64,000 nt of DNA from Campylobacterota bacterium (GCA_030152305.1 JASKOM010000001.1:265174-329173), one strand, 5' to 3'; numbered from the stretch's first letter, positions 5,911 through 42,745 are shown. Made by a program: numbers and translations. Notes: generated from the sequence alone by a model not told the origin.

Positions 5911-5953
5911 AAAACTAAAACAAACATGAGTCCCGAAATAAATTCGGGATGAC
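5911..5953 (+). repeat. palindromic repeat element, copy E1 (AAAACTAAAACAAACATGAG + TCCCGAAATAAATTCGGGATGAC)
   Basis: Near-identical to 6998-7041. Core hairpin is CCCGAA-ATAAA-TTCGGG. Confidence 0.85.
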
Positions 5954-6125
5954 GAAAATCTTCTTTTTTTTTAAATTCCACAAACATATTTTTATTATTT
6001 TTTATTAACTTATTTAATTTTAATTTATTTGAAAATGAGGCATTGAGTTATAATTCGACAAGATCATTCCTCACGAACTTGCAAATGTGAGAAATGAAAA
6101 ATTCCAAAAAGAAAGCGGTGAAATT

Positions 6126-6998
6126 ATGGCATACAAATATGAATCTGTGCTGAAATCGTTCCAATACTCGACAGAGAGTTATCAAGTTATTTCTGATTTT
6201 TTATTATCAGGTGATAAAACAAATCCAAAAGTCATGTTAAAAGTAACAGAAATTTCTAAACATTTCAACAAACGACCTAATGATTGGTTTGCAAATCCTA
6301 CGGTTATAGACTTTATTAGAACTTTGATTTTAGTCAAATTAGAAAATAAAGATACAAAATTAATAAAAGCTTTTAAAAAATGGGCTAAGGAAGAAAAAGC
6401 AATTACCAGAAAATCTGGTAATTGGCAACACAGCGATTTTATCGATGTTATCAACAAGTTAGAACACAAAGCTATTATTGATTTTGCAAAGTCGATTGAA
6501 CTTATTATTGTCAAACGAGGTAATGCAGAATTAACAGGGGCTTCATCTGGAACTTGGATTAATCGAGACTTAGCTGTTAAATATGCTGAATGGCTTGATC
6601 CTAAGTTTTCAATTTGGGTTTCTCAAAAAATCTTAGAACTTGTTAATGACGGTGTTGCTTGGAATGAAATTCGAAATAAGACCAAAAAAGATTATTTGCC
6701 TCTCACAAGTGCAATTAAAAAATATGTTGTTCCAGCAAATACGAAAACAAAAGCGGATATTATTTACGGACAAATAGCAAACTTTATAAATTTGCGAGTT
6801 ACTCAACAAAAAGCAAAAGACATTCGCGAAGAACGACATATTCAAGCAAACGAATTAACTCGAGATTATTTCGAAAAACTTGAATTAGATCGAATTGCAA
6901 AACTTCAAATCTTCGCTGAAATGATCATTGCTCAATTAAATATAACTTATCTAATAAAATTATCAAATATGATCGCAAACTACAAATATCAAGACTAA
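6126..6998 (+). CDS. KilA-N domain DNA-binding protein with P63C-like C-terminal half
   Basis: SGTWINRDLAVKYAEWLDPKFSIWVSQKI is the KilA-N signature. The ORF track starts at 6087. The ATG at 6126 is preferred because of a purine-rich RBS. Confidence 0.7.
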   Translation: MAYKYESVLKSFQYSTESYQVISDFLLSGDKTNPKVMLKVTEISKHFNKRPNDWFANPTVIDFIRTLILVKLENKDTKLIKAFKKWAKEEKAITRKSGNWQHSDFIDVINKLEHKAIIDFAKSIELIIVKRGNAELTGASSGTWINRDLAVKYAEWLDPKFSIWVSQKILELVNDGVAWNEIRNKTKKDYLPLTSAIKKYVVPANTKTKADIIYGQIANFINLRVTQQKAKDIREERHIQANELTRDYFEKLELDRIAKLQIFAEMIIAQLNITYLIKLSNMIANYKYQD

Positions 6999-7041
6999 AA
7001 ACTAAAACAAACATGAGATCCCGAAATAAATTCGGGATGAC
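6998..7041 (+). repeat. palindromic repeat element, copy E2
   Basis: Direct repeat of 5911-5953. The two copies bracket the KilA-N gene. Confidence 0.85.
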
Positions 7042-7116
7042 ATATTTCGCTTAATAAACGCCCGATAAATATGTTTTTTTTAATTCCACGATATGTATAA
7101 ATAAAATTTTTAAAAA

Positions 7117-7524
7117 TTAATTGTAAGAAATATTTTTAATTCTTTGTAGATATTGTTCTAAGATAATTTTTGCAGATAATGAATCTATTCGACCATCGCG
7201 AGAATGCCTGATTTCGTTTCCAAGAATTTGTTCGGCTTCAAAAGAAGTTAGTTCTTCATTTTCGTAAATAATTTCGTTATCAAATTTTAATAACGATACA
7301 AAATGTTTAAATCTTCGTTCCATTTCATCTCGATTCGAACCGTTTGGAATACCAACAATTAATTTATTAATATTCCAATTTTTGATAATTTGACGAACAT
7401 CATTACTTGCAATATCTCTATTTTTACGAATGACTGCCCGTAAAGGAATTGCAATTTTGCCATCTTGAGAAATAGCAATACCTATTCGTTTTAAGCCAAT
7501 ATCAATAGACAAGATGTTGTTCAT
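7117..7524 (-). CDS. ruvX: Holliday-junction resolvase-like / pre-16S rRNA nuclease YqgF
   Basis: 135 aa with N-terminal ILSIDIGLKRIGIAIS. Size and pattern match the YqgF family. Confidence 0.85.
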   Translation of the reverse strand: MNNILSIDIGLKRIGIAISQDGKIAIPLRAVIRKNRDIASNDVRQIIKNWNINKLIVGIPNGSNRDEMERRFKHFVSLLKFDNEIIYENEELTSFEAEQILGNEIRHSRDGRIDSLSAKIILEQYLQRIKNISYN

Positions 7525-7536
7525 GTAAATTATAAA

Positions 7537-8064
7537 TTATTTTGAATTTTTAGCTTTTAAAATTGATTCATCAAGAATTTTAATTGCTTCATCGACACCA
7601 ACAAAACTTTTAATTTTGACCCATTTATTTGGTTCAAGCATCTTATAAGTTTCAAAGAAATTTTTAATTTTGTTAATAACAGCTGAAGATAAATCTTCAT
7701 ATGATTTTACTTTTTCAAAAGTAGGATCGACTTTTGTAACAGGAACAGCGATAAGTTTTTCATCCATACCAGATTCGTCTTCCATGATTAAAGCACCGAT
7801 TAATCGACATTTAATAACACTGCCAACGGCAAAAGAATGATCTGAAAGAACAAGAATATCAGCTGGATCGCCATCATTTGCAAGAGTATTAGGAATAAAA
7901 CCATAATTTGCAGGATAAAACATTGCAGAATATAAAACTCTATCTACAAAAATAGCACCACTGTCTTTATCAAGTTCATATTTAATACTTGAACCAAAAG
8001 GTATTTCAATGACAGCATGTAATTTATTAGGGATTTCACCGTAACCGACTTTTTCTAAATCCAT
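7537..8064 (-). CDS. ppa: inorganic pyrophosphatase (family I)
   Basis: YELDKDSGAIFVDRVL, PANYGFIPNTL and DGDPADILVL motifs. The start is placed at ATG 8062-8064 behind an AAAGGA RBS. The 24 extra N-terminal codons in the ORF track are unsupported. Confidence 0.9.
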   Translation of the reverse strand: MDLEKVGYGEIPNKLHAVIEIPFGSSIKYELDKDSGAIFVDRVLYSAMFYPANYGFIPNTLANDGDPADILVLSDHSFAVGSVIKCRLIGALIMEDESGMDEKLIAVPVTKVDPTFEKVKSYEDLSSAVINKIKNFFETYKMLEPNKWVKIKSFVGVDEAIKILDESILKAKNSK

Positions 8065-8207
8065 TTTAATTCCTTTAAGAAAATACAAGGGTTTCATTAT
8101 TTTAATAGAAGTAAAGAAAAAAATCAAGATAAACATCTTTTAGAAATATTAAAAAATCAATGCTTTTGAAATATTAGTTTCTAATCATTAAATTAAAAAA
8201 TTGTCTC

Positions 8208-17144: not shown

Positions 17145-18908
17145 TTATTTTGTTGTTGTCATCATTTGAATTAAAGCTTTTAATTCTAGACTTTCGTTTA
17201 AAGTTTCTAACTTATCTTTTTTTAATAAATAACTTTGATCGCCTTCTCTTAAAAATGCAAAACTATTTTTTTCATTTTCGTTGAGCAACGAATTGCCATA
17301 TAAATTATATTTTTTATTATTTTTTAAAATTTTAATAATCGTTGGAAAAATATCAGATTGAGAAGCAATTTTATCGATTTGATGAGGTTCAAAAATATCA
17401 GGAGCATAAATATATAACGGGATTCTATGTCGTTCAATTATAGATTCACTTTTAAATAAATTATTTCCAACAACATGATCAGCCGTAATTATACAAATCG
17501 TGTTTTGAAACCAACTTTGTTTTTTACACGATTCGAGAAATTCACCTAATTTATTATCAAAATAATATAAATTATTTAAATAACCGTTTAGTCCAGTTTC
17601 ATCGTGAGAATAAATTTCATATTTTTTATTTGGTAATTTAAAAGGCATGTGCATTGTAGCCGTAAAACCAAATAATAAAAATGGCTGATTCGAATTTAAT
17701 TCTAAATGATTAATAAATTTTAATAAATTGCCATCCCAAACACTGCCAAAAGGCAATTTAATATTTACCTCATCGACATTTAAATTTTGCATATCTTCAG
17801 CACCAAAAACATTATCAAAACCAGCAATCGTCAAAGCTTGATCAATTCGAAAACTAGATCGTTTTGACCCTTGAATTCCAAAAGTTTTATAATTTAAATC
17901 TTTGACAAATTTGCCAAGATAATTGATATTTTTATTCATTTCTCGACCGTAACCTAAATCAGGAAAAGCAGGAACAGACGGAATACCCGTTAAAATAGAA
18001 GTTATTCCTTCGATGCTTCGCTGACCATTTGCAAAAAAATTATTAAAATAAATAGACGAATTTTTTAAATTATATAAATTTGGAGTCAAATTTTGATCGA
18101 TAAATTGCGGTGTCAAACTTTCAACTAATAAAATAATAATATTTGGTGTTTCGATATTTTTTTTATATTTTATATTTGACGAAAAATTATTATCTAATAA
18201 ATTATTAATTATATTTTCAGCTTCGTTATTTGGCACAAAATTATAAATTGTTCTCTTTTTGCTTTTTAAAATCGAGAAAGTTCCAGAAACTGCAAGATGA
18301 GCCGTTTGGATTTTGCCGTTAATAAAATTATCAGAAAATGACAACGGTTTGCCTGAAATTTTGCCACGAATGCCTAAAAATAATAAAATAATCGCGATAA
18401 AAATAATTATTATTTTTTCGATTAATTTTGAATTATTTATAAATTTTGTTTCGTCTATTTTTGTTAAATTAAGCCATATTTTCCAAATTAATAACATGCC
18501 TAAAGCATAAAGCGAAATAAAATTCGCATAAATTATAAATAAATCAAAAATAAAATTTAAATCATTGCCGATTAAAAAAACTTCATTTTCGAGATGACGA
18601 CCAACTTGAGGAAAATAGCCAATGCTAATTAAATTAACCGAAAAAATTATATATAAAATAATAAATAAACTTCGATTTCCAAATTTCCAAAAGCCAAAAA
18701 GCATAGCCAAAATAGAAACCGCTCCAAATGTTGAAATTGTTAAAAAATCAACACGAAGACCATTTATAAACGATAAAAAAATTTCGTTAAAACTTAATTT
18801 AGCAAAATTATCTAAGTTTAAAAAATAAAATAAAAATCTTTCAAGTGAAAGAACGAATAACGAAAAAACAACCAGTTTTGAACTCTGTTTAAATTTGTAA
18901 ATTGTCAA
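17145..18908 (-). CDS. LTA-synthase-family sulfatase-type transferase (phosphoglycerol/phosphoethanolamine transferase-like)
   Basis: 587 aa. N-terminal TM helices plus an extracytoplasmic alkaline-phosphatase/sulfatase domain (LLVESLTPQF, ITADHV). TTG start. Confidence 0.7.
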   Translation of the reverse strand: MTIYKFKQSSKLVVFSLFVLSLERFLFYFLNLDNFAKLSFNEIFLSFINGLRVDFLTISTFGAVSILAMLFGFWKFGNRSLFIILYIIFSVNLISIGYFPQVGRHLENEVFLIGNDLNFIFDLFIIYANFISLYALGMLLIWKIWLNLTKIDETKFINNSKLIEKIIIIFIAIILLFLGIRGKISGKPLSFSDNFINGKIQTAHLAVSGTFSILKSKKRTIYNFVPNNEAENIINNLLDNNFSSNIKYKKNIETPNIIILLVESLTPQFIDQNLTPNLYNLKNSSIYFNNFFANGQRSIEGITSILTGIPSVPAFPDLGYGREMNKNINYLGKFVKDLNYKTFGIQGSKRSSFRIDQALTIAGFDNVFGAEDMQNLNVDEVNIKLPFGSVWDGNLLKFINHLELNSNQPFLLFGFTATMHMPFKLPNKKYEIYSHDETGLNGYLNNLYYFDNKLGEFLESCKKQSWFQNTICIITADHVVGNNLFKSESIIERHRIPLYIYAPDIFEPHQIDKIASQSDIFPTIIKILKNNKKYNLYGNSLLNENEKNSFAFLREGDQSYLLKKDKLETLNESLELKALIQMMTTTK

Positions 18909-18981: not shown

Positions 18982-19006
18982 GTCATTTCGAATTTATTTC
19001 GGGATC
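18982..19006 (+). repeat. palindromic repeat element, copy E3 (degenerate left arm)
   Basis: GTCATTTCGAATTTATTTCGGGATC, followed by the conserved TAATTAATTTGAAAAAG. Confidence 0.7.
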
Positions 19007-19272: not shown

Positions 19273-19337
19273 TTAACACCTTTCACAATTTTTCGTAATT
19301 TTAATATTTTTGGCTTTTCGATTGTCATCCCAAACCA

Positions 19338-19404
19338 GTCATCCCGAATTTATTTCGGGATCTAATTAATTTGAAAAAAGATTCTAAAATGAATTCATGG
19401 CGAC
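19338..19404 (+). repeat. palindromic repeat element, copy E4 plus an inverted partner
   Basis: GTCATCCCGAATTTATTTCGGGATC (19338-19362), the spacer TAATTAATTTGAAAAAA, and an inverted degenerate copy GATTCTAAAATGAATTCATGGCGAC (19380-19404). Confidence 0.75.
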
Positions 19405-20167: not shown

Positions 20168-20274
20168 TGATGTTTCCTAATCTGGAGATCTAAATTTGAA
20201 TTGAGTGTGTTTTGAAAGCCTAGCTCAATTCTAATGAAAATTATAGCCTAAAAAGATAAAAAAAAATCCTTTAA

Positions 20275-20499: not shown

Positions 20500-20550
20500 T
20501 TAACACCTTTCCCAATTTTTCGTAATTTTAATATTTTTGGTTTTTCGATT

Positions 20551-20591: not shown

Positions 20592-20650
20592 TAAAAAAAT
20601 TTTGCTACAATTCAAATCAAAAAATCTTAAATTATTTGTTTTAAATTTAT

Positions 20651-27071: not shown

Positions 27072-27077
27072 ACTTTT

Positions 27078-28703: not shown

Positions 28704-28783
28704 CTAACACAATTCACGACTTTATCGATAATTTATTTTTTTCGATGAGGTCCGTTTCTTCGAAACAAAATAAAATAATTAAA

Positions 28784-29701
28784 ATGGAACATAAATATAT
28801 GGGTGATCAAGCAACGGTTTTCTTAAATCAAACATCAGCAACAAACAGATCTAATAATCAATCAAATCAGTCAAATAAATTTTTCAATAAGTATCTCAAA
28901 GCTTTTCTATTTATTATATTAATAATTATTGCTAGTTCAATAACTTATTATTACGATTATCAATCAGCAAAAACTAAAGAACAGGAACAAAAAAAAGAAT
29001 CTGAACTTGAATCAGAAAAGTTAAAAAAAATCGAAGCTGAAAAATTGCAAAAATACGAATTAGAGTTAAAAAGAATCGAAGCCGAAGAATTACAAAAAGC
29101 TGAACTCGAACGACAAAGAATCGAAGCTGAAAAATTACAAAAAGCTGAACTTGAACAACAACGACTCGATGCTGAAAAATTACAACAATACGAATTAGAG
29201 TTAAAAAGAATGGAAGCCGAAGATTTTCAAAAAGCTCAACTCGAGAAACAAAGAATCGAAGCTGAAAAATTACAAAAAGCTGAACTCGAACGACAACGAA
29301 TCGAAGCTGAAAAATTAAAAAAAGCTAAACTTGAAAAACAACGAATCGAAGCTGAAAAAACCACACAACCTAAACCATCAAATAAAAATGGCATTGTTGT
29401 AATTAACGATTTAATGTTTCAAGATCAACAATTGCCAAATCAAATGAGTTGGACTGAAGCAGTAAGTTATTGCAAAAATCTAACATTTAAAGGTTATTCC
29501 GATTGGAAATTACCAGATCTTGAAGATTTAACAATTGCTTTTCAAAATAAGTCAAAATTCAAAAACTTACAACAAAGTTGGTATTGGAGCAGAACAAATC
29601 ACGATAATTTTGGTGCGAAATTCATAGATTTTCACAGCGGATTAACCGATTGGGATGTTCAAACAGCAAACGGTTTTGCTTTTTGCTCAAGAGATTTGTG
29701 A
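28784..29701 (+). CDS. membrane-anchored coiled-coil repeat protein with C-terminal DUF1566 (Lcl-C-like) domain
   Basis: One TM segment (FLFIILIIIASSITYYY), repeats of the AEKLQKAELERQRIE type, and C-terminal MSWTEAVSYCKNL...YSDWKLPDLEDL...WYWSRT. The start is uncertain. The ORF-track ATG at 28745 lies inside a GATGAGGT motif. Confidence 0.6.
   Translation: MEHKYMGDQATVFLNQTSATNRSNNQSNQSNKFFNKYLKAFLFIILIIIASSITYYYDYQSAKTKEQEQKKESELESEKLKKIEAEKLQKYELELKRIEAEELQKAELERQRIEAEKLQKAELEQQRLDAEKLQQYELELKRMEAEDFQKAQLEKQRIEAEKLQKAELERQRIEAEKLKKAKLEKQRIEAEKTTQPKPSNKNGIVVINDLMFQDQQLPNQMSWTEAVSYCKNLTFKGYSDWKLPDLEDLTIAFQNKSKFKNLQQSWYWSRTNHDNFGAKFIDFHSGLTDWDVQTANGFAFCSRDL
29040..29358 (+). repeat. 45-nt periodic coding repeat (IEAEKLQKAELERQR heptad-like units)
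   Basis: About 7 diverged units of ATCGAAGCTGAAAAATTACAAAAAGCTGAACTCGAACGACAAAGA. Confidence 0.8.
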
Positions 29702-29723: not shown

Positions 29724-29764
29724 GTCATCCTGAAGCGAAAGCTCCTGTAACTTGTTTCGGGATC
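29724..29764 (+). repeat. palindromic repeat element, long variant E7
   Basis: Identical to E6: GTCATCCTGAAGCGAAAGCTCCTGTAACTTGTTTCGGGATC. Confidence 0.8.
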
Positions 29765-29825
29765 TAATTAAAAATTTTGCTACAATTCAAATCAAAAAAT
29801 CTTAAATTATTTGTTTTAAATTTAT

Positions 29826-29946
29826 TTCAACAAGGCTTACCAGTGCCTAAGATTCAATCTTTCATACCTTCTTGCTTATCTTGAAGGTATTCTGATACAA
29901 GCCTTTTTGAAGTAAATTTTGAAGAGATTGAATCTGAAACTGGTAA
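29826..29946 (+). ncRNA. candidate structured leader / c4-like element upstream of P3
   Basis: TTACCAGT (29837-29844) / ACTGGTAA (29939-29946), copy-specific AGATTCAATCTTTC (29850-29863) / GAAGAGATTGAATCT (29921-29935), and a copy-specific inner hairpin ATACCTTC (29864-29871) / GAAGGTAT (29883-29890). Confidence 0.45.
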
Positions 29947-30005
29947 CTTCTTAGCAACTCTTCAGCCAAAAAATTTATTTTAATTCTATAATTTACCAAG
30001 TAAAA

Positions 30006-30922: not shown

Positions 30923-30966
30923 GTCATCCTGAAGCAAACCCGTCATCCCGAATTCATTTCAGGATC
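30923..30966 (+). repeat. palindromic repeat element E8 (partial copy + full copy)
   Basis: GTCATCCTGAAGCAAACCC followed by GTCATCCCGAATTCATTTCAGGATC. Confidence 0.75.
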
Positions 30967-31027
30967 TAATTAAAAATTTTGCTACAATTCAAATCAAAAA
31001 ATTTTAAATTATTTGTTTTAAGTTTAT

Positions 31028-31148
31028 TTCAACAAGGCTTACCAAGTGCCTGTAACATAGCTCACAAGCTTTCTAGTCATTTGACTTGAAAGCCTTTTTG
31101 AAGTAAATTTTGAAGAGCCATGTTACGAAACTTGGTAACTTTCTAGCA
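31028..31148 (+). ncRNA. candidate structured leader / c4-like element upstream of P4
   Basis: TTACCAAGT (31039-31047) / ACTTGGTAA (31140-31148), plus the copy-specific GTAACATAGCTC (31052-31063) / GAGCCATGTTAC (31125-31136) with one A/C mismatch. Confidence 0.45.
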
Positions 31149-31198
31149 ACTCTTCAGCAAAAAAATTTATTTTAATTCAATAATTTACCAAGTAAAAA

Positions 31199-32116
31199 AT
31201 GATGGAAATCGTGAAAATATTGCCTCAAAAAATTGGGGAAGAGAATTCTCAAGCTGTTTCAGCGAGAGATTTACATAAGTTTTTAGGTGTAAAAAAGAAG
31301 TTTGCAGACTGGATCAAAGATCAATTTGAGAGAGGTCGTTTCGAAGAAAATATCGACTATTCCACTGTTCCCCTAAAAGGGAAGAGTGAAAAAGTAACAC
31401 TTTTTGATAATGGTTTATACCGTAACCAACACGGTCAAGTTGTAACTGTTGATTATTTTTTAACAGTTGAGACAGCTAAATTAATTGCTTTTATTAGCGA
31501 AACTGAAAAAGGTCACGAAATAAAAAAGTATTTTCTCAAAGTTGAACGAGAATATTGGGAATTAAAAATTCAGGAAGCCGTTGAGCAAGATCGAAAAAAT
31601 CACAATCCAAAACTTGAGTTAATCAAAGTTCGCGGAAATGGAAAAATTATTCGAAGATCTTTCACGGATACAGTTAAAGATTTTATCGTTTATGCAAAAT
31701 CGCAAGGTAGTCAAAATGCTGATCGTTATTATTTAATTTTCACGATTGAGATTTATAGAAAACTTGGCTTAATAAAAACGAATAAAGATTTTGGCAAATT
31801 AAAAAATGCGATTTCTGAAATAAAACTAAATGATGAAGATCTTAAAAAACTAGATAAACAATTTAACTTTCGAGATGAATTAGATGTTGAAAACTTAACA
31901 GTTGTTAGTTCATGTGAAATTATTGTTCAGCGAATTATCGAAGATGAAATGTCAAAACAAACTCACTACAAAACAATTTTTCAAATTGCAAAAGCTCAAC
32001 TTTCAACAATTCAAATCGCATTCGAGCCTTATATCGCAACTGCAAAACAGCAACTTGAATTTAAAGGGACTTTGTTTGAGTTTTTATTACTTGAAAATAA
32101 TCCTGTTGTGAATTAA
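31199..32116 (+). CDS. AntA-type + P63C-like protein (P4)
   Basis: 305 aa. C-terminal two-thirds are near-identical to P2 (...ENNPVVN end). The segment between ENIDY and DYFLT is unique. Confidence 0.7.
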   Translation: MMEIVKILPQKIGEENSQAVSARDLHKFLGVKKKFADWIKDQFERGRFEENIDYSTVPLKGKSEKVTLFDNGLYRNQHGQVVTVDYFLTVETAKLIAFISETEKGHEIKKYFLKVEREYWELKIQEAVEQDRKNHNPKLELIKVRGNGKIIRRSFTDTVKDFIVYAKSQGSQNADRYYLIFTIEIYRKLGLIKTNKDFGKLKNAISEIKLNDEDLKKLDKQFNFRDELDVENLTVVSSCEIIVQRIIEDEMSKQTHYKTIFQIAKAQLSTIQIAFEPYIATAKQQLEFKGTLFEFLLLENNPVVN

Positions 32117-32199
32117 TTCAGAATGACAAACTTCTTCGTCATTCCAGTTTAAACCTCATCGCTAAGCTATAATTTCCAGTAAAAAAATGGATATTTATA

Positions 32200-34632
32200 A
32201 TGGAATATAAAGCTAAAGAAATAGAAAGTTTTTGGCAAAAACATTGGTTAGATAACCGACTTTTTGAACCTGAAGAAAACAGCTTAAAATCTAAAAAATA
32301 TGTTTTGAGCATGTTTCCGTATCCGTCGGGACGAATTCATATGGGACATGTCCGAAATTACACGATTGGCGATGCTTTTGCTCGATATTATCGTAAAAGC
32401 GGTTTTAATGTTCTTCATCCAATTGGTTGGGACAGTTTTGGTATGCCAGCTGAAAATGCGGCAATAAAACATGCTGTTCATCCAAAAAAATGGACTTACG
32501 AAAATATAAGTTATATGCGAAATGAATTAAGATCTCTCGGTTTATCTTTTTCGTCTGAACGAGAATTTGCAACTTCTGATCCAGATTATACGAAATTTGA
32601 ACAAGAATTTATTATCGATTTATGGAATCGTGGGCTTTTATATAAAAAGAAATCTCATTTAAATTGGTGTCCAAATGATCAAACGATTCTTGCAAATGAA
32701 CAAGTTATCGAAGGTCATTGTTGGCGATGTGATACTGAAATCGAACAAAAAGAGATGGAGCAATATTATTTAAAAATTACTGATTATGCTGATGAACTTT
32801 TGTCTGATCTTAAAAAATTAGATCAATGGCCAAATCAAGTTAAATTAATGCAAGAAAACTGGATTGGCAAAAGTCGAGGTTTAAAATTTAATTTTAAATT
32901 AGATAATTCGACCTCATCGCAAATAAATAATATCGAAGTTTTCACAACTCGACCAGACACGATTTATGGAGTTTCGTATATTGCCGTTGCTCCTGAACAT
33001 AAACTTGTTGATGAGGTCTTAGAATCTGATCTTATTTCTCAAGATGATAAAGATCAAATTTTGGCAATCAGAAAAACTTCGCCTCGAGATCGAGCAACTC
33101 ACGAAAAAAGCGGAATTAATTTAAATATTTTCGCAATTCATCCATTGACAAACGAAAAAATTCCAGTTTGGACAGCTAATTTTGTTCTTGTTGATTACGG
33201 TTCAGGTGCAGTTATGTCAGTTCCAGCTCATGACGAACGAGATTTTTTATTTTCGCAAAAATATAATTTGCCAATTAAAATTTCTGTTCAGCCAAAAAAT
33301 AATTCGAATAATATAAATTTGCCATTTGTTGATGATGGTGTTTTAATTAATTCGGATAAGTTTTCTGGTTTAGAATCAGCTGAAGCTCGTGAAGCGATAA
33401 TTAACGAATTTGAAAATTTAAATTTAGGCAAAGCTGTTATTAATTATAAATTGCGAGATTGGGGAATTTCTCGTCAGCGATATTGGGGTGCACCAATTCC
33501 ATTAATTCATTGTTCGACATGCGGAACTGTTCCAGAAAAAATAGACAATTTACCTGTTGCACTTCCTGATGATGTTCAAATTACTGGCGAAGGTAATCCG
33601 CTTGATCATCATCCGAATTGGAAATATTGCAAATGTCCAGTTTGTGGCAAAGATGCAATTCGAGAGACTGACACACTTGATACTTTTGTTCAATCATCTT
33701 GGTATCACTTGCATTATACGGCTCAAAATCCAAAAAAAGATGCTTTCGGAAATATCGATTATTGGCTTCCAGTTGATCATTATATTGGCGGAATCGAACA
33801 TGCGATTCTTCATCTTTTATATTCGCGATTTTTTACAAAAGTTCTAAGAGATCTTGGCAAAATCAAAATTGACGAACCATTTACACATCTTTTGACTCAA
33901 GGCATGGTTTTAAAAGATGGTGCAAAAATGAGCAAATCAAAAGGTAATGTCGTTGATCCAGATGAAATAATCGAAAAATATGGTGCTGATACAGCTAGAT
34001 TATTTATTTTATTTACAGCTCCACCAACAAAAGAGCTTGAATGGAATGACAGTGCCGTTGAAGGAGCTTATAAATTTGTTCGTCGATTAGCTTTAAAAAG
34101 CGAATTTGCAAATCAATCTGTTTTAATTAATCAGCCAATTATTGATCATTCGTCGTTAAGCAAAGAAGAAAAATTCGCTCGTCGAAAAGTATTCGAAGCA
34201 TTAATGAGAAGTCGTGAAGTTTTCACAAAAACTTATACTTTTAATACTTTGATTGCTGGTGTAATGGAAGCAATGAATGCTCTTGAAGATCAAAATAATA
34301 TAAATATTTGGTCTGAAGGCTATTGGATTTTATTAAATATTCTTGAGCCAATTGTTCCTCATATTTCTTGGGAATTATCTAAAAATTTATTCGATTTAAA
34401 TAATTTAAATAACGAAATAAATATTTATGATGAGGTTTTTCAACTTGATCAAATTACTCTTGGAGTTAGTGTCAATGGCAAAAATCGAGCGGAAATTTCT
34501 GTTTCGCCTGATTCAACAGAAAATGAAATTATTGCAGTTGCAAAAAATAGTGTTTCAAAATGGCTTGACGGTAAAACGATAGTCAAAGAAATTCTTGTTC
34601 AGCGAAAACTCGTAAATCTCGTAATTAAATAA
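32200..34632 (+). CDS. leuS: leucine--tRNA ligase
   Basis: 810 aa with the HIGH-type [10 protein letters not shown] and KMSKS motifs and a CP1 editing domain. Confidence 0.95.
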
Positions 34633-34638
34633 TAAATT

Positions 34639-35850
34639 TTGATAGATAAAAATTCGTCAAATATTAAAAATTCAGTTCATGGATTTTTTTTATCTGTTGG
34701 AACAACTGTTGCTGAACCTTCTACGATTTTGCCTTTAATTGTTCATCATTTTTCTGGTAGTTCAATTTTAGTTGGCATTTTTGCCTCGCTTTTAAAAGGC
34801 GGTGCAATCTTCGTTCAAATGATCGCCGCATTTAAAGCTCAATCGTATAAATATATGATGCCATCGTTAAGATGGGTTTTTTTAATTAGATTTTTATCAT
34901 GGTTTGGCATCGGTTTAATTATTTATTTTGTCGGCAATATTAGCAATTTTTGGACATTGTTTGGAATTGCTTTTATGCTTTTTATTTTTTCGTTTTCATC
35001 GGGATTTGGAGCTGTATATTTTAAAGATATAATAGGCAAAATTTTTACTCGAAAATATCGGGCAAAAAGCATGGCTTCAAGACAATTTTTTTCTGGATTG
35101 GGAGCTATTTTGTCGGGAACTACCGCAGGTTGGTTTTTGGCAAGTTTCAATCCACCTGAAAGTTTTGCATATTTATTTATGTCAAGTGCAATTTTAATGG
35201 CAATCGGTTTAATCGCTTTTAGTTCAATTCCTGAACCCGTTAAACAAAAAATCGAAGAACCAAAAAGTAATTTTTTAGATTTTTTAAAAGAAAGTCATGA
35301 TTTTTTTAAAAATGATAAAAGATTGAGATTTAATATATTTGCAAATTTATATTCTTATGGCTACCTCATCGGATTACCGTTTATTATTTTAGATGCTCAA
35401 AATTATATAAAATTAGATGGTCATTTAATTGGTTTATTATTATCGAGTCAAATGACTGGAAGCATGTTAAGTAATATTTTATGGGGTTGGATTGCATCGA
35501 AAAATAATGGCGATGAGGTCGTAATTTATATTGCAACATTTTTAGGCATTTTAGCTTTTTTATTAGCTTTAATATTTCATGATATTTATATTTATGCAAT
35601 TATATTTTTTATATTAGGAGCTTCAATCGACGGAACAAGATTATCTTTTGGAAATTTAATAATCGAAATTTCACCAGAAGAACATCGACCGACTTATATC
35701 GCGATGAATTCTAATATTTCGTCTATTGGGCTATTTTTCCCGATTTTGGGCGGATTAATCGTCTCATTTAGTAATTATCAAATCGTTTATTTAATATCAA
35801 TTGCGATTTTATTATTATCTATTTTTTATCACAAAATATCTTTAAAATAA
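34639..35850 (+). CDS. MFS-type transporter
   Basis: 403 aa with about 12 TM segments. TTG start. Confidence 0.65.
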   Translation: MIDKNSSNIKNSVHGFFLSVGTTVAEPSTILPLIVHHFSGSSILVGIFASLLKGGAIFVQMIAAFKAQSYKYMMPSLRWVFLIRFLSWFGIGLIIYFVGNISNFWTLFGIAFMLFIFSFSSGFGAVYFKDIIGKIFTRKYRAKSMASRQFFSGLGAILSGTTAGWFLASFNPPESFAYLFMSSAILMAIGLIAFSSIPEPVKQKIEEPKSNFLDFLKESHDFFKNDKRLRFNIFANLYSYGYLIGLPFIILDAQNYIKLDGHLIGLLLSSQMTGSMLSNILWGWIASKNNGDEVVIYIATFLGILAFLLALIFHDIYIYAIIFFILGASIDGTRLSFGNLIIEISPEEHRPTYIAMNSNISSIGLFFPILGGLIVSFSNYQIVYLISIAILLLSIFYHKISLK

Positions 35851-35857
35851 AATACTC

Positions 35858-35890
35858 AAATAAGTTTAGTCTAGTTGGCTAAACTTATTT
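35858..35890 (+). promoter_or_regulatory. 12-bp perfect inverted repeat with 9-nt spacer abutting the groES -10 box (candidate heat-shock operator and/or terminator of the MFS gene)
   Basis: AAATAAGTTTAG-TCTAGTTGG-CTAAACTTATTT, with TATAAT at 35893-35898. The geometry is like CIRCE (9-nt spacer), but the sequence differs from TTAGCACTC-N9-GAGTGCTAA. Confidence 0.4.
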
Positions 35891-35964
35891 AATATAATTT
35901 TAAGAAATTGTTTTTTAAGATTTCAATCAAAATTTTAAAAATTAAAAAAATAAAAGGTCAATTT

Positions 35965-37865
<1,901 letters not shown>

Positions 37866-37911
37866 TAAATAATAAAATAAACAAATCTTCCAAACTAAAA
37901 TATAAAAAATA

Positions 37912-37948
37912 ACCTCATCGAATAAATAAAAAATATTCTCGATGAGGT
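37912..37948. terminator. bidirectional intrinsic terminator built from an inverted ACCTCATCG/CGATGAGGT pair
   Basis: ACCTCATCG-N19-CGATGAGGT flanked by A-runs and T-runs on both sides, between convergent groEL (+) and R4 (-). Confidence 0.6.
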
Positions 37949-37956
37949 TTTGCTTT

Positions 37957-38712
37957 TTACAAAACAGCTTTAATCTTCCACTTTAATTGACTAAACTTAC
38001 CATTTATCTCAATTCCAAAATCACGACCAGATTTTGTTAATTTCCAAACACCATTTTCACGAATTTGAAAACCTTTATGTTCGAGCATCAAATTAATCTC
38101 GACCGCTGATTTGTTGATCATTTTGCCTAATTCAGTTGGTAAGAAAAATTGATTTTCGAGATCAATCTCAAAATGTTCAAGCGGTGAAAAGTTATGAAAC
38201 TTGCGATAAAACTTATCGAGTCGGTAAAGAGTTGTTGGATTCATATTTTGTAAATTTGCAATTAACTTTTCGGTTGCCGTTAAATTATTATCAAGTTCAA
38301 TAATTTTTTCAGTTTCATTTCCAATTTCTGGAAGTTGTAGGTTTTGAGTTTGCGATTTCTTATTTTGCAAAAGTTCTCGCATTCGAAAGAATTCGCTAAC
38401 TAATCGAACTTTGAAATCTAAAACAATGTCGTTATTTCTCATCATCGAAATTAGTAAAGTTGCTTGTGCTTCGTTTAAATAGAAAGTTTTTTGTTCAACT
38501 TGCCCTCTATCTTTACCATTTTTTGTTGTTCTATCTAAACCCTCATTTTTAAAATGAATGTTTCCAAAAAACTCGAATTTATCGATGTGTTTGTTGATCA
38601 TGTTTGCGATTGAAACAGCTAAGTTTTCTGTTTTTTCTGCGATAACTCGATGAGAAATTCGAGGTTCGTTGTCGATGAGTTCGACGATATTTGTGTTAAA
38701 ATTTGAGTCCAT
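37957..38712 (-). CDS. Rha-type + KilAC-type protein (R4)
   Basis: 251 aa. IVELIDNEPRISHRVIAEKTENLAVSIANMINKHIDKFEFF... The C-terminal ~130 aa are near-identical to R1, R2 and B3. Confidence 0.75.
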   Translation of the reverse strand: MDSNFNTNIVELIDNEPRISHRVIAEKTENLAVSIANMINKHIDKFEFFGNIHFKNEGLDRTTKNGKDRGQVEQKTFYLNEAQATLLISMMRNNDIVLDFKVRLVSEFFRMRELLQNKKSQTQNLQLPEIGNETEKIIELDNNLTATEKLIANLQNMNPTTLYRLDKFYRKFHNFSPLEHFEIDLENQFFLPTELGKMINKSAVEINLMLEHKGFQIRENGVWKLTKSGRDFGIEINGKFSQLKWKIKAVL

Positions 38713-38828
38713 TTTTTATCTTTCGTAAAAAATTAAAGTTCAAGATGGAAGAGTTCCAAAAATCCGTCTTGACTGGACAATTATACTATTTTAAAATATC
38801 ATTTTCAATTTTAAGCATATAAAAATAT

Positions 38829-39083
38829 TTATCTTGTTTGAATTGCGATTAACTGACTCATGCTATTTTTAAAATTTTTAAACTCTTGCTCTTTTAGTAA
38901 TAAATTTAATGTTGTTTCAACTAAAAGTGAAATTGGTGTTTTATTATTTGCCCAATCAGAAACAGTATTTTTATTGACCCCTATTCTTTCCGCCAATTCT
39001 TTTTGAGTTATGCCCAATTCACGGCAGGTTTTTTTAACTAAGTTTTCTTGTTTGTCTTGTTCGGTTTTTTCAATTTTACTCAC
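38829..39083 (-). CDS. XRE/Cro-type HTH protein (H4)
   Basis: A GTG start at 39081-39083 follows AAAGGA and gives MSKIEKTEQDKQENLVKKTCRELGITQKELAERIGVNKNTVSDWANN... The ORF-track ATG at 39140 lies inside the last codons (KWKIKTII*) of the upstream gene. Confidence 0.7.
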   Translation of the reverse strand: MSKIEKTEQDKQENLVKKTCRELGITQKELAERIGVNKNTVSDWANNKTPISLLVETTLNLLLKEQEFKNFKNSMSQLIAIQTR

Positions 39084-39115
39084 GAATAAATCCTTTTGAT
39101 TTTCCGTAATTTTAA

Positions 39116-39874
39116 TTAAATTATCGTTTTTATCTTCCATTTTATTTGACTAAACTTACCAACGATCTCAATTCCAAATTCATTCCCCGATTTTGTTAAT
39201 TTCCAAACACCATTTTCACGAATTTGAAAACCTTTATGTTCGAGCATCAAATTAATCTCGACGGGACTTTTGTTAATCATTTTGCCTAATTCAGTTGGAA
39301 GGAAAAATTGCGAATCGAGATTAATCTCAAAATGTTCAAGCGGTGAAAAGTTATGAAACTTGCGATAAAACTTATCGAGTCGGTAAAGAGTTGTTGGCTT
39401 TTTTGATTCGAGGATTTCAATTAAATTTGAAGTTTCGAGAACATCGTTTTTTAATTCGATCATTTTGTCAGTTTCATTTCCAATTTCTGGAAGTTGTAGG
39501 TTTTGAGTTTGTGGCTGTTGAATTGAATAATTTCCAGTTTTGCGAATTGACGGAAGAACTTCACCAGCGATCCATTTTTGAAAAGGTAAAGCTTTCGGTT
39601 TATCTGAACGACCTATAAAAAAATATAATCCTTGTTCTGATAAAACAAGCATATTTCGGGTTATATTATTCATACGAATCGGTTTCGTATGAACCCATTC
39701 GTTAGGCACATTAGCAATTAAATTGCTATCAAATCGTTGATATTCTAAAGCAGTTGCAACATCTTTTGCGACAAACCAAATTGTCTCATTTGCAAAAATT
39801 GTCCTGATTTGATTACGATCTTCGAATAAAAATTGCGATTCAGAAGAGTTTTCTGATAAAATAGAGGAAGTCAT
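39116..39874 (-). CDS. Bro-N domain + KilAC-type protein (B3)
   Basis: 252 aa. IRTIFANETIWFVAKDVATALEY...LSEQGLYFFIGRSDKPKALPFQKWIAGEVLPSIRKTG is Bro-N. From QTQNLQLPEIGNET onward it is near-identical to the Rha-type paralogs. Confidence 0.8.
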   Translation of the reverse strand: MTSSILSENSSESQFLFEDRNQIRTIFANETIWFVAKDVATALEYQRFDSNLIANVPNEWVHTKPIRMNNITRNMLVLSEQGLYFFIGRSDKPKALPFQKWIAGEVLPSIRKTGNYSIQQPQTQNLQLPEIGNETDKMIELKNDVLETSNLIEILESKKPTTLYRLDKFYRKFHNFSPLEHFEINLDSQFFLPTELGKMINKSPVEINLMLEHKGFQIRENGVWKLTKSGNEFGIEIVGKFSQIKWKIKTII

Positions 39875-39946
39875 TTTGACCTTTAAAAATAAAATGATTA
39901 AGAAAGAAATATTTGCTGTGGTAGGTTGAATTTTCTTTCTGTTTTA

Positions 39947-40216
39947 TTATAATTGATTTAAAATCAAATTGTCAAGTTTATTTCTAAAATTTATTAATTC
40001 TGATTCAATATTTGACATTCTATTAATTTTTAATAATGCTTGAAATAATGTTTCTACTGTTTTAGGTATTTTTTGACCATTGCTCCATCGTGATAAAGCT
40101 TCTTGACTTACCCCTATTCGTTCCGCCAATTCCTTTTGAGTAATGCCTAATTCACGGCAGGTTTTTTTAACTAAGTTTTCTTGTTTGTCTTGTTCGGTTT
40201 TTTCAATTTTACTCAC
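39947..40216 (-). CDS. XRE/Cro-type HTH protein (H3)
   Basis: A GTG start at 40214-40216 follows AAAGGA and gives MSKIEKTEQDKQENLVKKTCRELGITQKELAERIGVSQEALSRWSNG... The ORF-track model (to 40366) reads through a palindromic repeat element. Confidence 0.7.
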   Translation of the reverse strand: MSKIEKTEQDKQENLVKKTCRELGITQKELAERIGVSQEALSRWSNGQKIPKTVETLFQALLKINRMSNIESELINFRNKLDNLILNQL

Positions 40217-40255
40217 GAATAAATCCTTTTGATTTTCCGTAATTTTAATATTTTT

Positions 40256-40332
40256 GGATTCTGAAACAAGTTGCAGGATGACAAGTTTTTTGTCATCCCG
40301 AAGCGATAGCTCCTGTAACTTGTTTCTGGATC
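40256..40332 (+). repeat. palindromic repeat element E10: inverted partner + long variant (MITE-like composite)
   Basis: GGATTCTGAAACAAGTTGCAGGATGAC (40256-40282), the spacer AAGTTTTTT, and GTCATCCCGAAGCGATAGCTCCTGTAACTTGTTTCTGGATC (40292-40332). AATTTTAAT is present on both sides. Confidence 0.75.
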
Positions 40333-40341
40333 TAATTTTAA

Positions 40342-41070
40342 TTAAATTATCGTTTTCATCTTCCACTTCAATTGACTAAACTTACCAACGATCTCAATTC
40401 CAAAATCACGACCAGATTTTGTTAATTTCCAAACACCATTTTCACGAATTTGAAAACCTTTATGTTCGAGCATCAAATTAATCTCGACCGCTGATTTGTT
40501 GATCATTTTGCCTAATTCAGTTGGTAAGAAAAATTGATTTTCGAGATCAATCTCAAAATGTTCAAGCGGTGAAAAGTTATGAAACTTGCGATAAAACTTA
40601 TCGAGTCGGTAAAGAGTTGTTGGATTCATATTTTGTAAATTTGCAATTAACTTTTCGGTTGCCGTTAAATTATTATCAAGTTCAATAATTTTTTCAGTTA
40701 AGTTTCCAATTTCTGGAAGTTGAAAGTTTTTAGTTTGCGATTTTTGATTTTGTAAGATTTCTCGCATTCGAAAGAATTCGCTAACTAAACGGACTTTAAA
40801 ATCTAAAACGATGTCGTTATTTCTCATCATCGAAATTAGTAAAGTTGCTTGTTGCTCGTTTAAATAGAAAGTTTTTTGTTCGTTAGTCCGATTTTTCGAG
40901 TTTTTAATAGCCTCCGTTTTAAACGGAACCATTCCAAAATGTTCGATTTTACTGATTAGTTCAACGACATTTTTTTGTTGAATTTCTGTTTGTTCTGCGA
41001 TAACTCGATGAGAAATTCGCGGTTCATTTTCGATGAGTTCGACGATATTTGTGTTAAAATTTGACTGCAT
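40342..41070 (-). CDS. Rha-type + KilAC-type protein (R2)
   Basis: 242 aa. The N-terminal Rha segment has a distinct middle (AEQTEIQQKNVVELISKIEHFGMVPFKTEAIKNSKNRTNEQ). The C-terminal half is near-identical to R1 and R4. Confidence 0.75.
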   Translation of the reverse strand: MQSNFNTNIVELIENEPRISHRVIAEQTEIQQKNVVELISKIEHFGMVPFKTEAIKNSKNRTNEQKTFYLNEQQATLLISMMRNNDIVLDFKVRLVSEFFRMREILQNQKSQTKNFQLPEIGNLTEKIIELDNNLTATEKLIANLQNMNPTTLYRLDKFYRKFHNFSPLEHFEIDLENQFFLPTELGKMINKSAVEINLMLEHKGFQIRENGVWKLTKSGRDFGIEIVGKFSQLKWKMKTII

Positions 41071-41072
41071 GT

Positions 41073-41151
41073 ATCTCCAATTATTTGACTAAAATAGAAA
41101 TTGCCGTTTCTAAGATAGTTGGAGATAATTATATAGAATATATTCTATATA
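41073..41151 (-). promoter_or_regulatory. candidate operator + promoter + RBS-sequestering 5'UTR hairpin of R2
   Basis: Perfect 22-bp palindrome TATATAGAATATATTCTATATA (41130-41151) overlaps a TATAAT. In the transcript, ATCTCCAA (41126-41119) can pair with TTGGAGAT (41080-41073), which contains the GGAG 2 nt before the ATG. Confidence 0.45.
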
Positions 41152-41161
41152 ATCAAGAATA

Positions 41162-41404
41162 TCATCTATTTAAAATAGCTATAGTTTTTTTTAAAATTTC
41201 TAATTCTTCTTCTTTTTTCAAAAGTTCGATTGTTCTATAAAAACTTTTCGGAGGTTTTAATTTATTATTCGCCCAATTTGTAATCGCTCTTTCACTTACC
41301 CCAATTCGTTCCGCCAATTCCTTTTGAGTTATGCCCAATTCTCGGCATGTTTTTTTAACTAAGTTTTCTTGTTTGTCTTTTTCGGTTTTTTCGACTTCGC
41401 TCAA
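41162..41404 (-). CDS. XRE/Cro-type HTH protein (H2)
   Basis: 80 aa with a TTG start after AAAGGA. MSEVEKTEKDKQENLVKKTCRELGITQKELAERIGVSERAITNWANN... Confidence 0.75.
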   Translation of the reverse strand: MSEVEKTEKDKQENLVKKTCRELGITQKELAERIGVSERAITNWANNKLKPPKSFYRTIELLKKEEELEILKKTIAILNR

Positions 41405-41463
41405 GTTTAGTCCTTTTTTGAATTAATTTGTTTTTCCGCAATTTTAATATTTTTGGATTGATC

Positions 41464-41530
41464 GTCATCCCGAATTGATTTATAGATCTAATTAATTTGA
41501 AACAAGACCCTGAAATCAATTCATTGAGAC
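41464..41530 (+). repeat. palindromic repeat element E11 (degenerate) plus an inverted partner
   Basis: GTCATCCCGAATTGATTTATAGATC (41464-41488), then TAATTAATTTGAAACAA, then GACCCTGAAATCAATTCATTGAGAC (41506-41530). Confidence 0.65.
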
Positions 41531-41538
41531 GAAAAAAT

Positions 41539-42297
41539 TTACAAAACAGCTTTCATCTTCCACTTTAATTGACTAAACTTACCGTTTATCTCAATTCCAA
41601 ATTCATTCCCAGATTTTGTTAATTTCCAAACACCATTTTCTCTAATTTGAAAACCTTTATGTTCGAGCATCAAATTAATCTCGACGGGACTTTTGTTAAT
41701 CATTTTGCCTAATTCAGTTGGTAAGAAAAATTGCGAATCGAGATCAATCTCAAAATGTTCAAGCGGTGAAAAGTTATGAAATTTGCGATAAAACTTATCG
41801 AGTCGGTAAAGAGTTGTCGGATTCATATTTTGTAAATTTGCAATTAACTTTTCGGTTGCCGTTAAATTATTGTCAAGTTCGATTATTTTTTCAGTTGAGT
41901 TTCCAATTTCTGGAAGTTGTAGGTTTTGAGTTTGCGATTTCTGATTTTGCAAAAGTTCTCGCATTCGAAAGAATTCGCTAACTAAACGGACTTTAAAATC
42001 TAAAACGATGTCGTTATTTCTCATCATCGAAATTAGTAAAGTTGCTTGTTGCTCGTTTAAATAGAAAGTTTTTTGTTCAACTTGCCCTCTATCTTTACCA
42101 TTTTTTGTTGTTCTATCTAAACCCTCATTTTTAAAATGAATGTTTCCAAAAAACTCGAACTTATCGATATTTTTGTTGATTAAATTTGCGATTGAAACAG
42201 CTAAGTTTTCTGTTTTTTCAGCGATAACTCGATGAGAAATTCGCGGTTCGTTGTCGATGAGTTCTATTAAGAATTCGGTAAAATTCTTTTCGTTCAT
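41539..42297 (-). CDS. Rha-type + KilAC-type protein (R1)
   Basis: 252 aa. The Rha segment is almost identical to R4. Confidence 0.75.
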   Translation of the reverse strand: MNEKNFTEFLIELIDNEPRISHRVIAEKTENLAVSIANLINKNIDKFEFFGNIHFKNEGLDRTTKNGKDRGQVEQKTFYLNEQQATLLISMMRNNDIVLDFKVRLVSEFFRMRELLQNQKSQTQNLQLPEIGNSTEKIIELDNNLTATEKLIANLQNMNPTTLYRLDKFYRKFHNFSPLEHFEIDLDSQFFLPTELGKMINKSPVEINLMLEHKGFQIRENGVWKLTKSGNEFGIEINGKFSQLKWKMKAVL

Positions 42298-42409
42298 TTA
42301 ATTTTGCTCCAGATATTTTTCTAAAATAGAAATGCCAGTTTCTAAAATAGTTGGGGCAAATTTTAGCATATTTTTCTATTATATGGCTACTTAAATCTAC
42401 TATTTTCTA

Positions 42410-42667
42410 TTAAATATATTTTTGAACTTCTTGAATAGAATTTTTTAGATTTTGAAAACTTGTTGTCTTATTTAAACTTTCTACTAATAAATTAATATGA
42501 TTAATAATATTTTTAGGAATATTATTACTTGTTGCATATTTTGATAATGTTCGATCAGTTAAGCCTATTCTTTCTGCCAACTCTTTTTGAGTTATGCCCA
42601 ATTCTCGGCATGTTTTTTTAACTAAGTTTTCTTGTTTGTCTTTTTCGGTAATTTTGACCTCATCCAT
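42410..42667 (-). CDS. XRE/Cro-type HTH protein (H1)
   Basis: The ATG at 42665-42667 lies 10 nt after GGAG and gives MDEVKITEKDKQENLVKKTCRELGITQKELAERIGLTDRTLSKYATS... The ORF-track TTG at 42682 contains that RBS. Confidence 0.75.
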   Translation of the reverse strand: MDEVKITEKDKQENLVKKTCRELGITQKELAERIGLTDRTLSKYATSNNIPKNIINHINLLVESLNKTTSFQNLKNSIQEVQKYI

Positions 42668-42720
42668 TTTTATTATCTCCAATTCCCAATTTTTTGTAAT
42701 TTTAATATTTTTTGCTTTTT

Positions 42721-42745
42721 GTCATCCCGAATTTATTTCGGGATC
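42721..42745 (+). repeat. palindromic repeat element, copy E12
   Basis: GTCATCCCGAATTTATTTCGGGATC, identical to the E4 core. Confidence 0.85.

Follow-up and report, generated by a model that had tools for sequence, protein, structure and literature searches.

What are the short palindromic repeats that lie between positions 5,911 and 42,745 of a 64,000-nucleotide stretch of DNA from a Campylobacterota bacterium (GCA_030152305.1, JASKOM010000001.1:265174-329173; hereafter the window, numbered from its first base), and why do they stand beside genes of phage-regulator type? In a preliminary description, they were taken to mark every accessory cassette boundary, and mobile elements lacking a transposase, recombination sites, and terminator or processing signals were considered as possible roles. 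Our analysis suggests, with a probability of roughly 0.7, that these repeats belong to the CGTC-tagged REP superfamily, equivalent to the NTS-like "Ssn-related motifs" (SRMs), and that the units of the window ride in duplicated modules and are mostly decayed.

The 11-mer GTCATCCCGAA, when a single mismatch was allowed, was found 13 times in the window where 0.57 matches were expected (none of 100 shuffled sequences reached 13), and the 25-mer was found six times with at most three mismatches, against 0 expected. One 11-mer match (18588-18598), located in a sulfatase-family gene, lacked a palindrome and was discarded as a chance match. The consensus unit, (C/T)GTC-AT-CCCGAA-N5-TTCGGG-AT-C, is oriented and made up of a (C/T)GTC tag at its 5′ end, a palindromic stem of 8 bp opening with an A-T and then a T-A pair, a loop of 5 nt or a loop with an extra insert, and a C directly after the stem. 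In the short units, the stem is ATCCCGAA/TTCGGGAT and the loop reads TTTAT. In four long variants (20551-20591, 21760-21800, 29724-29764, and 40292-40332), 16 nt are inserted after the 5′ half-stem, ahead of the loop, and 21 nt separate GTCATCCYGAA from TTCGGGATC.

The repeat was present at all eleven loci listed in the preliminary description, which had announced at least 12; a twelfth, decayed and previously unlisted, was found at 32103-32150. The short and long variants were recovered as described, as was the opposite orientation of the two units around the KilA-N gene, both of which are minus-strand units; every other listed locus has its main unit on the plus strand. Only three units, as read from the sequence, have a perfect 8-bp stem (7017-7041, 19338-19362, and 42721-42745) and two others have a single stem mismatch (5929-5953 and 30942-30966). 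The second, inverted copies reported at three loci exist, but as degenerate arms (19380-19404, 41506-41530, and 40257-40282). The family is REP/MITE-like, as had been proposed, with some copies forming inverted doublets, either head-to-head (40257-40332 and 32103-32150) or tail-to-tail (19338-19404 and 41464-41530), and the two arms are unlike in all four. The 9-mer AATTTTAAT, at 40241-40249 and 40334-40342, encloses one of these doublets, in agreement with the earlier observation of the same sequence on both sides. The majority of the units in the window are decayed. When folded as single-stranded DNA (ssDNA) and compared with shuffled sequences, the intact units had predicted energies of −7.4 to −8.7 kcal/mol (z about −4), and the doublet at 40253-40339 was predicted to form a single 87-nt hairpin (−21.4 kcal/mol, z −7.7).

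These features correspond to those of two published descriptions. Di Nocera et al. (2013) defined CGTC-tagged REPs by an unpaired 5′ CGTC tag, in place of which TGTC or CCTC is tolerated, by an 8-9-bp stem that opens with an A-T and a T-A pair, by a 4-5-nt loop, and by a short tail (PMC3733652). Such REPs are mostly doublets, often heterodimers, sited just after stop codons, and occur in Proteobacteria (including Sulfurovum), Chlorobi, Bacteroidetes, Spirochaetes, and Thermotogae; families CGTC-1 to -4 include Neisseria dRS3 and Rickettsia RPE-4 and RPE-6, and the authors reported no dedicated transposase (PMC3733652). The short units of the window possess the tag, the 8-bp stem with its A-T/T-A start, the 4-5-nt loop, and the inverted doublets; the long variants, with their 21-nt loop, fall outside this definition. 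More recently, Chenal et al. (2025; Nat Commun 16:2388) described NTS-like hairpins, the SRMs, flanking ssnA-type genes in many phyla (PMC11893778). SsnA is a single-domain GIY-YIG protein of 94 amino acids (aa) that binds the hairpin only when this is presented as ssDNA; double-stranded DNA, the RNA form, and the opposite strand are not bound. Its cut falls a few nucleotides 5′ of the motif. Cleavage requires the three bases that precede the palindrome, binding requires the C that follows it, and changes and extensions of the loop are tolerated (PMC11893778). In N. meningitidis, SsnA reduces transformation by motif-bearing DNA about five-fold (PMC11893778). In the window, GTC before and C after the palindrome are found in all intact units. 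The known partner enzyme of the family is a ~94-aa GIY-YIG single-strand nuclease, Ssn, and not a RAYT or IS200 transposase (PMC11893778). Other searches were less informative: Rfam, at gathering thresholds, returned four tRNAs only for the window, and the hairpin halves, used as a literature query, matched only primers.

A cross-phylum scan with GTCATCCYGAA-N(4-26)-TTCGGGATC, using one genome per species, found at least 120 genome loci with this pattern; they come from many phyla and have unrelated genes as neighbours. Among the matches listed, the source taxa were Treponema, Ignavibacteria, Bacteroidota, many Patescibacteria, Melainabacteria, Alpha-, Gamma-, and Deltaproteobacteria, and Sulfuricurvum; most of these matches were of the 25-nt form, and frequently an inverted partner with another stem, GATGCTGAAACAAGTTCAGCATGAC, was located 2-35 nt further on. 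When 470 open reading frames (ORFs) located at most 400 nt from these listed matches were clustered, the sole recurrent family was a ~90-aa GIY-YIG protein matching Pfam PF01541. In these loci, which had been selected by their hairpins, its gene was placed exactly between two inverted hairpins, and five out of five such genes adjoined a unit. In other phyla, the same hairpins were also observed as heterotypic pairs repeated in tandem every 82-213 nt, in arrays free of genes.

The association was also found when starting from the protein. Among 80 metagenome loci encoding relatives of the GIY-YIG protein, 63 genes were assessable; a hairpin lay within 120 nt of 57 of them and on both sides of 42, the tags pointed outward in 35 of 48 hairpin pairs, and the background was 0.17 units per kb. 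These proteins, 91-96 aa long, have Y-Y-E spacings of 11 and 46-47 residues, as do Y6, Y17, and E64 of SsnA, which were mutated in the published work (PMC11893778). At least 7985 proteins of this family are present in the protein collection, and the naming sources describe them simply as GIY-YIG nuclease family proteins. The link between hairpin and GIY-YIG gene reproduces a published association, for which figures of 71% and 42% were given for Ssn (PMC11893778), and is not new. The logo of 193 units beside GIY-YIG genes reads T-GTC-AT-N-C-Y-G-A-A-CTTGT-T-T-C-R-G-N'-AT-C-T, where GTC, which the search itself required, is present in 193/193 units and the C that follows the palindrome in 189/193. 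The stem covaries: 97% of cells were paired, and 98 double-change cells were counted compared to 27 in shuffled data, a level reached by none of 500 shuffles. Moreover, 30% of the GTCAT sites in the GIY-YIG loci had a complementarity of at least 7/8, versus about 1% or less for control pentamers. The hairpin stem is under selection.

Several observations weigh against assigning the window units to this family. The published SRM pattern, HGTCWYN(0-2)YYVSBRHN(0-5)WNVSBRGN(0-2)RNCYNB, finds the Neisseria NTS but matched no site in the window; as a regular expression, it also misses the GAA-type units that form the cross-phylum consensus, and this subfamily would thus be under-counted in the published search. 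Six-frame and profile comparisons detected no Ssn-like nuclease gene within the 64 kb, the best six-frame matches being a T5orf172-type ORF and a 90-aa ORF, neither of them significant by profile. The resemblance of the GIY-YIG proteins to N. meningitidis SsnA is one of length and residue spacing. Finally, the long variants, several arms, and the unit at 18982 had a predicted ssDNA fold no better than that of shuffled sequences, so that many copies may be inert.

Two ORFs of the window were considered as the cognate nuclease and rejected. The ORF at 5428-5832 aligned with the Ssn-like profile over a 15-residue YKIGIT…R motif only (probability 19%), and that at 42804-43076 (90 aa), which adjoins an intact hairpin, had a profile probability of 0.4%. 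The former (plus strand, 134 aa), which immediately precedes the first hairpin and the KilA-N gene, contains a T5orf172/MUG113-type motif of the GIY-YIG superfamily and matches a PHROG endonuclease (E = 3.7e-8), but is not of the Ssn family. Pfam scans of the large ORFs of the window revealed no RAYT, IS200, Y1, or other transposase, as had been stated in the preliminary description.

The position of the units in the window (Table 1) is explained to a large extent by duplication. The window, of about 30% G+C, contains housekeeping genes (argH-like, ppa-like, four tRNAs, a LeuRS-type synthetase, GroES/GroEL, purL-like, guaB, ftsA, and ftsZ) and encodes a PglB/STT3 oligosaccharyltransferase. Together with the appearance of the GroEL sequence, PglB points to a host that is probably Campylobacterota-like. 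The hairpins are found in three islands, composed of the T5orf172-like ORF and the KilA-N gene (5428-6998), of HTH/Rha and AntA modules (18.9-22.9 kb and 29.7-32.1 kb), and of four HTH-Rha/Bro-N modules (37.9-42.7 kb). Among spacers of 30 nt or more, 11 of the 19 that touch Rha, Bro, AntA, KilA-N, or HTH genes contained a unit of the intact or long-variant kind, compared with 0 of 23 other spacers (Fisher p = 1.8e-5, a value that overstates the evidence because the loci are not independent); the spacer 32117-32199, which holds a decayed pair only, is not among the 11. The absence of copies from the housekeeping blocks and their presence just past AntA stops and on both sides of the KilA-N gene were thus borne out, but the idea that every accessory cassette boundary is marked was overstated. 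Seven spacers contain no unit at all, five of them inside modules (20168-20274, 38713-38828, 39875-39946, 41071-41161, and 42298-42409) and two elsewhere (22907-22940 and 37866-37956), and the junction of overlapping genes at 39116-39140 is also free of units.

Table 1 Hairpin units of the window, with example sites of the 9-mer ACCTCATCG and gene-free hairpin arrays in other loci. z: comparison of the predicted fold with shuffled sequences.
Position	Strand	Tag (position)	Structure	Location and predicted fold
5929-5953	minus	CGTC (5953)	Short unit GTCATCCCGAATTTATTTCGGGACT; stem 7/8, tail altered; extra 18-19 nt (5911-5928) common to the copy at 6998-7016	
7017-7041	minus	TGTC (7042)	Intact short unit	19 nt past KilA-N stop; −8.7 kcal/mol, z −4.1
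5911-5953 and 6998-7041			43/44-nt direct repeat; homology stops at the GTC tag	Encloses the KilA-N gene
18982-19006	plus	CGTC (18980)	Decayed unit GTCATTTCGAATTTATTTCGGGATC, two stem mismatches	Between HTH gene and sulfatase-family gene; z 0.05
19324-19404	plus	AGTC (19337)	Composite: 5′ fragment GTCATCCCAAACCA (19324-19337), intact unit 19338-19362, 17-nt spacer, degenerate inverted arm 19380-19404 (minus)	Between Rha stop and HTH start
20551-20591	plus	mutated to ATC	Long variant	Divergent spacer between HTH gene and AntA1; weak fold, z −1.0
21760-21800	plus	CGTC (21758)	Long variant GTCATCCTGAA-GCGAAAGCTCCTGTAA-CTTGT-TTCGGGATC	6 nt past AntA1 stop; z −0.65
29724-29764	plus	CGTC (29722)	Long variant, identical to 21760-21800	23 nt past stop of Lcl_C-domain gene; upstream of AntA3
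30923-30966	plus	CGTC (30921, 30940)	Long-variant 5′ fragment (30923-30941), then short unit GTCATCCCGAATTCATTTCAGGATC with one stem mismatch	Begins 6 nt past AntA3 stop
32103-32150			Decayed head-to-head pair (…TTCAGAATGAC-N10-GTCATTCCAG…)	Overlaps stop of AntA4, the fourth AntA gene
40257-40332	minus, plus	TGTC (40290)	Head-to-head doublet: inverted unit 40257-40282 (minus, GTCATCCTGCAACTTGTTTCAGAATC), 9-nt spacer, long variant 40292-40332 (plus)	
41464-41530	plus, minus	CGTC (41462)	Tail-to-tail doublet, both arms decayed: 41464-41488 (plus), 41506-41530 (minus)	Between Rha stop and HTH start
42721-42745	plus	TGTC (42719)	Intact short unit	39 nt upstream of HTH start, 59 nt past stop of ORF 42804-43076; −7.4 kcal/mol, z −4.1
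1663, 3663, 5846/5879, 10538, 11138, 17767, 32153, 37912/37940, 47552, 59237			9-mer ACCTCATCG, example sites	
L007, 1489-1677			Gene-free array	Other locus
L018, 147-780			Gene-free array	Other locus
L055, 4504-4972			Gene-free array	Other locus
L107, minus-strand offsets 957-1712	minus		Gene-free array, six units over ~730 nt	Other locus

Repeat analysis showed that the hairpin, a leader of about 230 nt, and an AntA gene occur together in four copies with periods of 1193-1209 nt. The Rha/Bro gene core is present in five copies, four of which belong to tandem HTH modules (hairpin-HTH-Rha) with periods of 1133-1263 nt, and co-duplication of the hairpin with the modules was seen in repeat families D1, D2, D5, D8, and D15. 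The hairpins thus stand at module borders largely because the modules were duplicated together with them, and, since they belong to tandemly duplicated modules, the number of independent events or lineages is reduced to about five. Two kinds of module, hairpin-HTH-Rha/Bro and hairpin-leader-AntA, have been amplified in tandem and carry the units of the window as passengers; a further pair brackets the KilA-N gene. One contig (L121) was identical to 32090-38022 of the window and breaks at paralogous modules, and AntA paralogues were found on NCBI contigs of 424, 331, 213, 127, and 83 kb.

The link with phage-regulator genes noted in the preliminary description is true of the window, where copies are confined to such islands, but not of the family, as the same 25-mer stands beside unrelated genes in many phyla. 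No homologues of the KilA-N, Rha, Bro-N, AntA, HTH, or T5orf172 proteins of the window were detected in 145 hairpin-bearing loci (1.04 Mb). A phage origin of the motif was considered and rejected: only 25 viral contigs carry it, and the AntA module had no match among 50,697 phage records. Given that regulator homologues are missing from the hairpin loci and that few viral contigs carry the motif, its association with phage regulators is a local feature of this genome.

Other explanations were weighed against these data. The cassette arrays might have been built by the units, acting as mobile elements or recombination sites: single-strand cuts at the tag by an enzyme of Ssn or another type, or recombination between copies, would lead to the insertion, duplication, and exchange of modules. 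The 43/44-nt direct repeats bracketing the KilA-N gene, whose homology stops at the GTC tag, near the position of the Ssn cut, would fit such a process, as would the beginning of the module periods at the hairpin, the resemblance of the NTS-ssnA-NTS layout to an insertion sequence (PMC11893778), and a paralogous junction (39107-39123 region compared with 40241-40342) that lacks exactly 93 nt between the two AATTTTAAT copies. However, an indel at a 9-bp repeat is equally well explained by deletion between direct repeats, and this also applies to the one candidate for a MITE target-site duplication, AATTTTAAT flanking 40250-40333, which is single-copy at the paralogous junction. Moreover, hairpin and leader are contiguous homologous DNA, as expected from simple tandem duplication, Ssn is a nuclease that is not known to transpose, and most copies in the window are decayed; we therefore consider this scenario unlikely.

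A role at the RNA level, as a terminator, 3′-end stabiliser, or processing signal for the upstream gene, would account for the seven loci located within about 25 nt of an upstream stop, a typical REP position (PMC3733652). The terminator version, already raised in the preliminary description, fails because the stem is not followed by a T-run and the units are absent from the terminator calls, apart from the junction hairpin of the 40257-40332 doublet. Genuine terminators in the window are formed by a different palindrome, ACCTCATCG…CGATGAGGT, with T's after it. The units are in sense orientation for AntA but antisense for Rha/HTH and KilA-N, and Ssn does not bind the RNA form of its hairpin (PMC11893778). 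An RNA-level role is thus very unlikely. A function as operator or promoter element, in which a dimeric repressor of the small Xre-type HTH family would bind ATCCCGAA-N5-TTCGGGAT in front of its own gene, seems highly improbable. The placement upstream of HTH genes proposed earlier does hold for five of the six HTH starts (39-66 nt), and in one copy the ATGAC tag mimics a −35 hexamer (41468-41441, 9/12 matches). However, the HTH gene at 38829-39140 has no unit, the same units follow the AntA and KilA-N stops where there is no HTH gene, and in many phyla the identical 25-mer is found away from any HTH homologue. In addition, the long variants place the half-sites 21 nt apart, by which operator geometry is lost, and promoter-like sites were no commoner than in shuffled sequence.

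If the window units, as members of the CGTC-tagged REP/SRM superfamily, behave as in the system tested in the literature, one strand of the unit would fold into a hairpin whenever the DNA is single-stranded, a GIY-YIG nuclease (Ssn) of ~94 aa would bind it and cut a few nucleotides 5′ of the tag, and cutting would lower the integration of motif-bearing transforming DNA. An Ssn-type enzyme may be encoded elsewhere in the genome and cut the GTCAT strand in this way when transformation, replication, or repair exposes these regions as single strands. It may also be that the modules were duplicated with the hairpins acting as breakpoints or as patches of homology; the KilA-N direct repeats ending at the tag and the 93-nt paralogous indel fit this breakpoint idea without proving it.

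Another repeat of the window deserves mention. The 9-mer ACCTCATCG occurs at 26 sites in 64 kb (14 plus, 12 minus), against 0.12 expected, both within and between genes. Its edges are sharp, with random flanks save for a purine at −1, and inverted pairs followed by T's form terminators at 5846-5887 and 37912-37948. By analogy with Neisseria, where a DNA uptake sequence (DUS) coexists with NTS and Ssn, the 9-mer bears the signature of such a sequence and can be called DUS-like; no paper using ACCTCATCG as an uptake sequence was found in the literature.

The four AntA leaders (20592-20821, 21801-22027, 29765-30005, and 30967-31198) are conserved except for two segments of 12-14 nt, about 75 nt apart, which are copy-specific and complementary within each copy. 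Cognate duplexes between these segments had predicted energies of −13.9 to −18.8 kcal/mol, compared with −2.7 to −10.6 kcal/mol for non-cognate ones; the stretch that separates the segments contains a terminator-like hairpin, and the leaders are predicted to adopt alternative folds (z −3.4 to −6.8). This layout recalls copy-specific antisense control of antirepressor genes, as in P1 c4/ant. The leader had no Rfam match, a permissive scan of 20500-22100 gave chance microRNA-like matches only, and its conserved core had no match in viral contigs.

Among the neighbouring genes, five of ~250 aa (in 37957-42297 and 19415-20167) share a conserved C-terminal half, with an N-terminus of Rha type in four and of Bro-N type in one (39116-39874). 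Judging from the sequences, this mosaicism indicates domain swapping within genes, and not at the hairpins. The region between the two AntA arrays (22941-29701) contains eight ORFs, seven of which were scanned against Pfam with a match for the last only (Lcl_C), and is rich in internal repeats, including 45-nt tandem units (28974-29404) and repeats of at least 84 nt common to 24510-24970 and 27596-28670. Directly beside the HTH-Rha array, a gene for an N4/N6 DNA methyltransferase is followed by one for an Mrr_cat-type restriction endonuclease (43223-44941), and the two look like a restriction-modification pair.

As the repeat can now be named and its family has a biochemically tested partner, there is no need to treat it as a new cassette-recombination signal. 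These data also point to a gap in the SRM pattern: the GAA-stem subfamily is near-identical across Bacteroidota, Spirochaetota, Patescibacteria, Melainabacteria, Ignavibacteriota, and several proteobacterial classes, and flanks ssn-like genes in those phyla. With an over-represented 9-mer and the hairpins present together, Ssn-type control of transformation outside Neisseria becomes testable. A bolder proposal, which we regard as decidedly unlikely, is that the DUS-like 9-mer is paired with Ssn-type hairpins, and that the hairpins at the borders of phage-derived modules are single-strand cut sites that steer the replacement, duplication, or blocking of modules in transformation. If this were true, it would amount to integrase-free cassette management, and the GAA-type subfamily missed by the published pattern would be the most widespread form of such a system.

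Several known systems resemble the one described here. Like integron attC sites, the units are folded ssDNA hairpins bordering promoter-poor accessory genes in arrays, but they show no R/L core sites, extrahelical bases, or integrase, and the hairpin arrays in other genomes are gene-free, with periods of 82-180 nt. With the REP/REPIN-RAYT (TnpA-REP) system they share short palindromes that are often inverted doublets, a single-copy enzyme gene flanked by repeats, and recognition of the hairpin as ssDNA. However, the tag is GTC-AT and not GTAG, the partner is a GIY-YIG nuclease and not an HUH/Y1 transposase, and REPINs are lineage-specific, whereas the 25-mer of the window is near-identical across phyla. 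The CGTC-tagged REPs are closer, with the same CGTC/TGTC tag, stem, loop, and tail, head-to-head doublets or heterodimers, and post-stop position, although the tail is C-T-A in the window instead of CCA, the long-loop variants exceed 4-5 nt, and the study that defined these REPs found no associated enzyme (PMC3733652). Compared with the NTS/SRM system, the window has a different stem (CCCGAA/TTCGGG with a 5-nt loop, against TCCCGCG/CGCGGGA with a 4-nt loop) and no ssn gene within its 64 kb. Nevertheless, both have an oriented hairpin with CGTCAT on the 5′ side and ATC on the 3′ side, in which GTC and the C after the palindrome are conserved, in both the motif clusters around variable or accessory genes, and in other genomes the subfamily flanks, on both sides, a gene for a single-domain GIY-YIG protein of ~94 aa.

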